Below are positions 51,376 to 51,869 of a DNA stretch of 54,396 nt, piece by piece. Source of the DNA: Escherichia phage MagusPhagus; sequence record PP925836.1; one strand, given 5' to 3'. The position numbers and the translations under genes are program-made. The stretch's first letter is position 1. Each line of letters opens with the position of its first letter. Under the pieces are notes generated by a model. It was not told the DNA's origin and ran no database searches. It worked only from the letters and a program-made list of their open reading frames with translations.

Positions 51376-51638
51376 ACGCCGAACATCCCATTCAGTCCGG
51401 CGAACAATTTCCGCCAGTGGTTTTCAACATAAGCCCGGAACGGCTTAACGCGAACATTGCGGGCCTTCAGTTCAATCTTGTCGAAGAAACGCGGCTCTAT
51501 AATTGTTCCGTCCAGATATTTAACTAGGATCGGGCGCTCAAGATCGTTATATGTCTTGTTCAGCACAACCAGACCAGGGTCTTTACGGTATTCCGGGAGC
51601 ACAACAAGATCACCCGTTTTGATATTCATGAATGGCAT
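51366..51638 (-). CDS. Hypothetical protein (90 aa, start at ATG 51638)
   Basis: ORF; coupled to the upstream micro-ORF. Confidence 0.35.
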   Translation of the reverse strand: MPFMNIKTGDLVVLPEYRKDPGLVVLNKTYNDLERPILVKYLDGTIIEPRFFDKIELKARNVRVKPFRAYVENHWRKLFAGLNGMFGVWL

Positions 51639-51754
51639 CACATCACCCCGCCGATATAGCTAATAATTGCCGCAGTCGCGCCAGCTATTACCACCATGAA
51701 GACGAAAGCGACCACACAGAAAACAGCCTTGACAGTATTTTTGTCGACTCGCAT
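51638..51754 (-). CDS. Micro-ORF, 38-aa membrane peptide (MRVDKNTVKAVFCVVAFVFMVVIAGATAAIISYIGGVM)
   Basis: ATG with RBS GAGG; 1-nt stop/start overlap with the downstream gene. Confidence 0.4.
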   Translation of the reverse strand: MRVDKNTVKAVFCVVAFVFMVVIAGATAAIISYIGGVM

Positions 51755-51761
51755 ATAAACC

Positions 51762-51869
51762 TCACATGTCAGTAATCAGCTTAACAATCGCCACAGTGAT
51801 ATAGAGTGACGCACTAAGGTAAACGGCCGCCACAGCAACGGCGGCGGATAACATTGCAATCTTTTTCAT
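51762..51869 (-). CDS. Micro-ORF, 35-aa membrane peptide (MKKIAMLSAAVAVAAVYLSASLYITVAIVKLITDM)
   Basis: ATGA overlap with the upstream gene stop. Confidence 0.4.
   Translation of the reverse strand: MKKIAMLSAAVAVAAVYLSASLYITVAIVKLITDM

Follow-up and report, generated by a model that had tools for sequence, protein, structure and literature searches.

The genome of Escherichia phage MagusPhagus (record PP925836.1; 54,396 nucleotides (nt), referred to at its full length as the window) carries on its minus strand, at 51638-51869, two adjacent open reading frames (ORFs), here termed ORF1 and ORF2, that encode peptides of 35 and 38 amino acids (aa), respectively. A preliminary description, made from the sequence without database searches, had put them forward as a pair of translationally coupled membrane micro-ORFs within an early operon, and this description proved largely right. 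Judged by comparison with related loci, ORF1 and ORF2 are real protein-coding genes under purifying selection, and their products are very probably co-expressed membrane micro-proteins. The full explanation preferred here, to which we assign a probability of roughly 0.55, is that these co-produced micro-proteins act by binding and serve takeover of the host envelope or exclusion rather than lysis.

Conservation was assessed at 61 loci, comprising the window, six mEp phages (mEp010, mEp013, mEp021, mEp044, mEp515, and mEp554), eight Escherichia coli prophages, and 38 plus 8 IMG/VR contigs. The 38 contigs were found via the 90-aa gene that lies downstream of ORF2 and therefore form a sample that is independent of the small ORFs; the other eight were found via ORF1. 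Both ORFs were present at the same place in 61/61 loci. The sole defect, found in a single metagenomic contig, was the loss of 1 nt from an A-run of ORF1, and ORF2 was intact throughout. Length differences between alleles consisted of whole codons only, all indels being in frame.

The loci yielded 27 distinct DNA alleles of ORF1 and 32 of ORF2. Variable sites at the first, second, and third codon positions numbered 24/17/34 of 37 in ORF1 and 20/22/35 of 39 in ORF2. Synonymous sites were saturated in both ORFs (proportion of synonymous differences (pS) of 0.64-0.86), with a proportion of nonsynonymous differences (pN) of 0.16-0.33. For ORF1, comparison of the window with the mEp phages gave pS values of 0.75-0.86 and pN values of 0.16-0.23; the corresponding ranges for ORF2 were 0.67-0.75 and 0.24-0.32. 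Among the mEp phages, the ratio of nonsynonymous to synonymous substitution rates (dN/dS) was 0.03-0.4. Against most allele types, the synonymous excess in the proposed frame yielded Fisher p values of ∼1e-7 to 1e-8 for ORF1 and ∼1e-4 for ORF2. The excess was clear only in that frame: the other two gave ratios near or above 1 and contain stops, and nominal significance was reached in 1 of 16 off-frame controls. For the ORF1 allele that diverges most, the signal was weaker, with p values of 4e-3 in frame and 1e-2 in one off-frame.

A short hydrophobic ORF alone is not significant. Over both strands, 37 ATG-initiated ORFs of the window are 20-90 aa long and reach a Kyte-Doolittle mean of 2.0 or more over 19 residues. 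That such ORFs are frequent by chance, and that the RefSeq annotation pipeline (PGAP) leaves the interval unannotated in most of the prophages examined, would favor the view that ORF1 and ORF2 are chance ORFs in an intergenic spacer. This view is almost certainly wrong, being refuted by the conservation and by the frame-specific selection described above. ORF1 and ORF2 stand out from chance because they tile their gap exactly, their coupling is conserved, and the proposed frame is under selection. The comparison with related phages that the preliminary description had suggested thus came out in favor of the pair, with both ORFs present at 61/61 loci and their reading frames and coupling conserved in relatives.

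The two ORFs fill exactly the 227-nt gap between a 74-aa gene and a 90-aa gene, both also on the minus strand, and the coordinates and translations first given for them were confirmed, ORF1 being a 35-codon gene. The ATG of ORF1 (51869..51867) shares the tetranucleotide ATGA with the TGA of the upstream 74-aa gene, an overlap that is kept in all relatives tabulated, and GCGGAGG followed by N7-ATGA is kept in 41/41 loci tabulated. The TGA of ORF1 (51764..51762) overlaps a GAGG (51763..51760), and a 7-nt gap then leads to the ATG of ORF2. In most relatives, this junction likewise reads TGAGG, a gap of 2-9 nt, and ATG. The TGA of ORF2 (51640..51638) and the ATG of the downstream 90-aa gene (51638) have one base in common (TGATG), and the overlap is conserved in relatives as TGATG or ATGA. 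The coupling to flanking genes through ATGA and 1-nt overlaps that had been claimed is therefore seen in the sequence and is conserved. A programmed frameshift or an ORF1-ORF2 fusion was considered and rejected; with a gap of 7 nt in some alleles but 8 nt in others, the two ORFs keep no fixed relative frame.

Tight and conserved ATGA, stop-Shine-Dalgarno-ATG, and TGATG junctions along a string of four genes, together with the very small size of the genes, would also suit a pure translation relay, in which the ORFs would hand ribosomes of the 74-aa gene on to the 90-aa gene while their products had no function. We regard this as very unlikely. A relay needs no particular sequence, yet pN/pS was 0.2-0.5, and in ORF1, allele types with saturated synonymous sites have 16 nearly unchanged residues in common. 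A full-length hydrophobic helix is retained by both ORFs in all alleles. Furthermore, in E. coli STEC308 (NZ_CP091020.1; contig L014, 1654..2367), a 714-nt gene encoding a 237-aa KilA-N protein is inserted exactly between ORF1 and ORF2. The inserted gene starts at the usual ORF2 start, and both ORFs have survived it intact, with the overlap between ORF2 and the 90-aa gene kept.

Inspection of the polypeptide sequences shows one hydrophobic helix in each peptide, in agreement with the single transmembrane (TM) segments originally described. Uncharged stretches of 26 aa in ORF1 and 29 aa in ORF2, the latter reaching the C terminus, have 19-residue Kyte-Doolittle means of 2.19 and 2.76, respectively, and an AlphaFold2 model of ORF1 consists of one uninterrupted helix spanning residues 2-34 (pLDDT 94). 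Both peptides contain the one helix-capable hydrophobic stretch of at least 19 residues by which single-pass small membrane proteins are recognized. Both N termini are basic; ORF1 ends in KLITDM, and ORF2 ends within its hydrophobic stretch. The two peptides show no sequence similarity to each other. In ORF1, the C-terminal half, YLSxSLYITVAIxKLIT, is near-invariant in most allele types, a single divergent type (MSMVKIAAL...) being the exception, and variation falls in the Ala-rich N-terminal half. In ORF2, Phe-12, Phe-17, Phe-19, Gly-25, Ala-28, Ala-29, and Ile-34 are invariant, and the C-terminal third varies.

A variable N-terminal half followed by 14-16 conserved C-terminal residues might alternatively reflect a precursor. 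The first ∼21 residues of ORF1 (MKK, a hydrophobic core, and S-A-S) would then be a Sec signal peptide, and the 14 conserved C-terminal residues, LYITVAIVKLITDM, would leave the cytoplasm as the released product. Small residues do occupy the would-be −3 and −1 positions in every allele type (SAS, SVS, AAS, and TAS). Such processing nonetheless appears highly improbable: the proposed boundary has no helix-breaking residue, the AlphaFold2 helix continues across it, and the proposed mature part is itself strongly hydrophobic. Moreover, direct reading of the sequences revealed no lipobox ([LVI][ASTVI][GAS]C) in either ORF, the residue before every Cys being Phe or Ile.

The preferred explanation can be set out as a series of steps. 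ORF1 and ORF2 would be transcribed with the early operon, on which the N-like protein Gp17 acts as antiterminator, and translated by coupling along the four-gene string (74, 35, 38, and 90 aa). A coupled string in an antiterminated operon implies that the peptides are probably made together, in similar amounts, and only after infection or induction. As to membrane insertion, topology, pairing, and target, we infer the following. Insertion would take place after release from the ribosome, because the peptides are too short for co-translational targeting, and would probably be N-in and assisted by YidC or Sec. Small membrane proteins usually act by binding to larger ones in the membrane, and their insertion depends on YidC or SecYEG (reviewed in PMC12648545). 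The embedded helices would pack together or onto an inner-membrane protein of the host and thereby alter an envelope function early in the lytic program. Taking over the host, excluding other phages, or controlling division or transport are examples of such functions, but lysis itself is not.

The bacterial proteins AcrZ, MgrB, MgtS, and CydX (PMC12648545) resemble ORF1 and ORF2 in size, in their single helix, and in the expected helix-helix contact with a larger membrane protein. They show no homology to ORF1 and ORF2, which differ in being phage-encoded and part of an early lytic program. Small phage membrane proteins that act on the host envelope, rather than in lysis, and are encoded outside the lysis cassette include T4 Imm and Sp and HK97 gp15 (superinfection exclusion), SPO1 Gp56 (division inhibitor), and φ29 p16.7. 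These proteins have one or two TM helices but are 2-4 times larger than ORF1 and ORF2 and carry extramembrane domains, and temperate phages usually express their exclusion proteins from the prophage. We know of no homology of ORF1 or ORF2 to any of them. Holins and antiholins are also small phage membrane proteins; however, a charged C-terminal tail is typical of them and is lacking in ORF1 and ORF2, and they belong to the lysis cassette, whereas ORF1 and ORF2 lie in the early operon ∼13 kb away from it.

Several observations weigh against paired action by binding. A conserved helical face was not detected in helical-moment permutations (p = 0.06-0.5), and with conservation not confined to one face, no packing interface is visible. 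The central Tyr/Ser/Thr cluster of ORF1 fits a pore-forming peptide as well as it fits a binding helix. The insertion in STEC308 implies that direct coupling of ORF1 to ORF2 is not obligatory, and the co-inheritance of adjacent ORFs may be plain linkage. Finally, single-copy variants were found in Logan assemblies (P0024-P0027) and in contig L023 (2247..2366), comprising ORF2 frameshifts, a fusion of ORF2 to the 90-aa gene, an ORF1-ORF2 deletion fusion, and a 1-nt ORF1 deletion. These represent either assembly errors or occasional prophage decay, and the existence of such frameshift and fusion singletons suggests that the genes are dispensable for prophage maintenance.

The main rival to binding is a pore-forming or depolarizing action, which we consider unlikely. 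As with type I toxins or viroporins, oligomers of the peptides would permeabilize the membrane and dissipate the proton-motive force early in the lytic cycle, leading to host shut-down or a block to superinfection. Type I toxins are peptides of <60 aa with one helix that form oligomeric pores (PMC12648545; for DinQ, PMC3567139). Those of E. coli (TisB, DinQ, HokB, LdrD, IbsC, ShoB, and ZorO) share with ORF1 and ORF2 their size (19-50 aa), one TM helix, and very short tails, and are located in the inner membrane (PMC12648545, PMC3567139), as is predicted for ORF1 and ORF2. A pore would also suit the conserved hydroxyl-rich stretch of ORF1 (Tyr-17, Ser-19, Ser-21, Tyr-23, and Thr-25), and the position downstream of an antiterminator would silence a toxic product in lysogens. 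By contrast, there is no sequence relationship to type I toxins, with no Hok/Gef, Ldr, TisB, or Ibs match in Pfam or NCBIfam. More generally, neither ORF1 nor ORF2 matched any PHROG, Pfam, NCBIfam, or PADLOC family (Pfam and NCBIfam at E values up to 1), known toxin and defense families included. The helices contain no charged residues, and ORF2 is uniformly hydrophobic. The genetic organization also differs. Type I toxin genes are stand-alone units with a structured 5′ leader and an antisense-RNA antitoxin, whereas ORF1 and ORF2 are a coupled pair in a polycistronic phage operon, with no separate transcription unit, no long 5′ leader, and no sign of an antisense RNA by consensus promoter scan or Rfam. 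No promoter-like site was detected on the plus strand between 51600 and 52150 in a consensus scan, which weak promoters could escape; promoter-like hits in the region as a whole were at chance level (10 against 9.8 expected).

A more elaborate scheme would make the two peptides an obligate two-subunit membrane effector, which would either form a channel as a hetero-oligomer or specifically inhibit some inner-membrane machine of the host, and whose core function would be a defining one for the newly described family of mEpimmI (mEp021-type) phages. An arms race over exclusion or over host specificity would then account for the hypervariable allele classes, and a terminator t2 within ORF1, overridden by Gp17, would combine with coupled translation to control the rest of the early operon. 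We view this combination as quite unlikely.

That ORF1 might contain a terminator raises the alternative that the selected feature of the locus is an RNA element and that the ORFs are incidental. The terminator-like hairpin in ORF1 (Table 1) has a counterpart in the mEp021 record, in which a terminator, TERM_2, is annotated in the same part of ORF1, near the hairpin of the window although not positionally equivalent to it. Terminators t1, t2, and t5 are stated to have been demonstrated experimentally (PMC11893012), and t2 is possibly TERM_2. All allele types can fold a hairpin of −9 to −15 kcal/mol within ORF1 codons 5-15. However, an RNA element does not explain selection on amino acids in one frame, and ORF2 has no such hairpin. 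The folding energy was not lower than that of synonymous recodings (z = −0.5 for the window and −2.3 to +1.2 for the alleles), the hairpin shifts in position between alleles, and its U-tracts are weak. Terminator-like hits in the region (8 against 5.4 ± 2.5 expected) were within chance, and Rfam gave no family match at the locus. An RNA element as the sole object of selection is thus scarcely credible. Because it is no more stable than synonymous recodings, the hairpin probably arises incidentally from runs of alanine codons (GCN), although a weak terminator could exist alongside the coding function of ORF1.

The window is an apparently circularly permuted, reverse-oriented whole phage genome of the mEp021 type and belongs to the mEp021 group of temperate coliphages, to which it is 82-86% identical over the region. 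The alleles of the mEp type and of the prophages share 63-74% identity with ORF1 and 42-61% with ORF2. The pair lies in a sharp mosaic block (51550..51869, minus strand) that runs from ORF1 through ORF2 into the first ∼100 nt of the 90-aa gene and is 60-73% identical to the mEp phages, with flanks at 81-96%. In one related contig (L059), a window-type ORF pair occurs as a unit between mEp-type flanks, and in mEp044 and mEp013 an apparent recombination breakpoint lies inside ORF2.

Searches for more distant relatives returned only members of the same family. An ORF2 profile run against 1.84 billion cluster representatives found three clusters, all of its own family (E = 1e-14 to 3e-13). A tblastn search of 50,697 phage records with ORF2 and the conserved half of ORF1 (full-length ORF1 being masked as low complexity) matched only the six mEp phages. 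A concatenated ORF1+ORF2 profile found, in a protein database with an apparent 40-aa floor, only 40-aa ORF2 variants and four frameshift or fusion singletons. Among GTDB representatives (one genome per species), nothing was found with this profile or with the 90-aa neighbor. Because profile, tblastn, and per-species searches yielded no outside relatives, the family appears, as far as these searches reach, to be confined to the mEpimmI phages of E. coli.

The two ORFs are missing from the ORF track of the window, as had been pointed out, but the databases already have them: GenBank contains each exact sequence under names such as “hypothetical protein,” “uncharacterised protein,” or “putative membrane protein,” with exact ORF1 occurring on 423 contigs and exact ORF2 on 422. 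Five mEp genomes deposited in 2024 have both annotated (mEp010_29/_30, mEp515_31/_32, mEp554_27/_28, mEp044_27/_28, and mEp013_28/_29), as orthologs or identical sequences with the same position and coupling. Neither is annotated in the older mEp021 record. Entries from E. coli, for example ELC61238.1 and CTU79391.1 (“hypothetical protein” and “putative membrane protein”) are likewise orthologous or identical. All of these entries are gene-caller products and do not differ in substance from ORF1 and ORF2. In the eight RefSeq prophages examined, ORF2 was annotated in two and ORF1 in none, and the descriptive paper on the mEp021 group (PMC11893012, including its supplements) makes no mention of the two genes.

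ORF1 and ORF2 are an ordinary kind of object: they already exist as hypothetical proteins in databases, small hydrophobic early genes are familiar in phages, and no long-standing question is opened by them. If translated, they add two genes to the mEpimmI phages, which are common but little-studied temperate coliphages of the gut, and as a linked pair under selection they offer a test case for phage micro-proteins in the host membrane. For annotation, they illustrate that a length cut-off hides conserved genes and that the “terminator” of the mEp021 record lies in coding sequence.

The features of the window that bear on the ORF pair are collected in Table 1. The operon begins with the N-like gene, followed by a 39-aa gene, erf, ssb, an abc2-like gene, the 74-aa gene, ORF1, ORF2, and the 90-aa gene; thereafter come small unassigned genes, an ipe-like gene, and methyltransferase genes. 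NinG, Q, the lysis genes, and the structural genes continue in the same direction. The content of the operon (N and recombination functions) resembles that of the λ pL operon. The antiterminator of the window agrees with the R17/R19/R20/R24 motif described for Gp17 (PMC11893012). According to the mEp021 authors, nutR1 precedes gp17 and nutR2 follows gp32 (PMC11893012), and the mEp021 operon is treated as rightward on this basis. The operon containing the ORF pair is thus early, as the preliminary description stated, but “leftward” holds for the orientation of the window only. The promoter-like site at the far end of the window is likely the early promoter of this operon.

Table 1. Positions of ORF1, ORF2, their signals, and other features in the window
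Feature	Position	Strand	Description
ORF1	51762..51869	−	35 aa, MKKIAMLSAAVAVAAVYLSASLYITVAIVKLITDM; single hydrophobic helix, basic N terminus (MKK)
ORF2	51638..51754	−	38 aa, MRVDKNTVKAVFCVVAFVFMVVIAGATAAIISYIGGVM; basic N-terminal nonapeptide, then 29 uncharged residues to the C terminus
Shine-Dalgarno of ORF1, GGAGG	51877..51881	−	7 nt 5′ of the ATG, within the end of the upstream gene
Shine-Dalgarno of ORF2, GAGG	51760..51763	−	Overlaps the TGA stop of ORF1
GC-rich hairpin, GCCGCCGTTGCTGTGGCGGC	51826..51845	−	Inside ORF1 codons 9-15; ∼−13 kcal/mol, weak T-tail
Upstream 74-aa gene	51866..52090	−	PHROG 28542 (function-unassigned family); weak DUF2737-like match
Downstream 90-aa gene	51366..51638	−	PHROG 28396 (function-unassigned family)
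N-like antiterminator, Gp17 ortholog	53606..53896	−	Operon head; arginine-rich motif R17, R19, R20, R21, R24
Promoter-like site	54273..54245	−	TTGACT-17-TATATT, 10/12 matches, best of the region; just downstream of the terminator-like hairpin
Terminator-like hairpin	54391..54374	−	At the far end; follows directly on the repressor gene when the window is read as a circular genome
Repressor gene	1..648	−	215 aa; helix-turn-helix and Peptidase_S24; 99% identical to that of a relative
Holin	38076..38276	−	66 aa, two helices; lysis cassette (37125..38276)
Endolysin	37583..38155	−	Lysis cassette, adjoins the holin
Rz/Rz1	37125..37613	−	Lysis cassette

The 90-aa gene is named “toxin-antitoxin system toxin subunit” by PGAP and in the mEp021 record. 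No match for its product was found in Pfam, NCBIfam, PADLOC, or PDB sequences, such that the name is without profile support and no known toxin or defense family is indicated. Its homologs all come from E. coli and are at least 64% identical, and its AlphaFold2 model, with a pLDDT of 45, is unusable.

The preliminary description had also likened the pair to a lysis-proximal array of small membrane peptides. This array (36301..35235, minus strand) comprises ∼12 tightly packed micro-ORFs of 22-47 aa, each with one hydrophobic helix, and lies in the late region, bounded by the gene that follows Rz/Rz1 and by the gene for the small terminase subunit. It resembles ORF1 and ORF2 in small size, one helix per peptide, tight packing with Shine-Dalgarno-like sites, and absence from the annotation of the mEp021 record. 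In mEp021, only 4-5 orthologous members are present (MH706966, 26412..26884), and copy number therefore varies between relatives. Comparison of the array peptides with ORF1 and ORF2 revealed no sequence similarity (z at most 2.5). Most of the array N termini are acidic (MDIFELL.., MNAYEML.., MKWLDFF.., and MSDSDFL..), in contrast with the basic N termini of the early, ORF1/ORF2 pair. The resemblance thus extends to size and hydrophobicity but not to homology or N-terminal charge, and is generic. The further suggestion that the phage makes repeated use of small membrane peptides agrees with the many tiny hydrophobic ORFs that it carries.

ORF1 and ORF2 are flanked by further uncharacterized membrane genes, namely a two-helix 78-aa gene, ipe, and the variable-copy array. 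The 78-aa protein is gp28 in mEp021, where its gene lies beside ipe; the ortholog in the window (49186..49438, minus strand) is split by a frameshift into pieces of 42/47 aa and 51 aa and is intact in relatives, for example in contig L093 (6448..6684). Two other conserved micro-genes occur on the minus strand of the same operon, one of 30 aa that is rich in Cys and Trp (49816..49908) and one of 39 aa just after the N-like gene (53456..53575), and gene callers find each of them in 8/8 related contigs. In the lysis cassette, the N terminus of the endolysin has an Ala/Gly-rich hydrophobic stretch that looks like a signal-anchor-release (SAR) domain.

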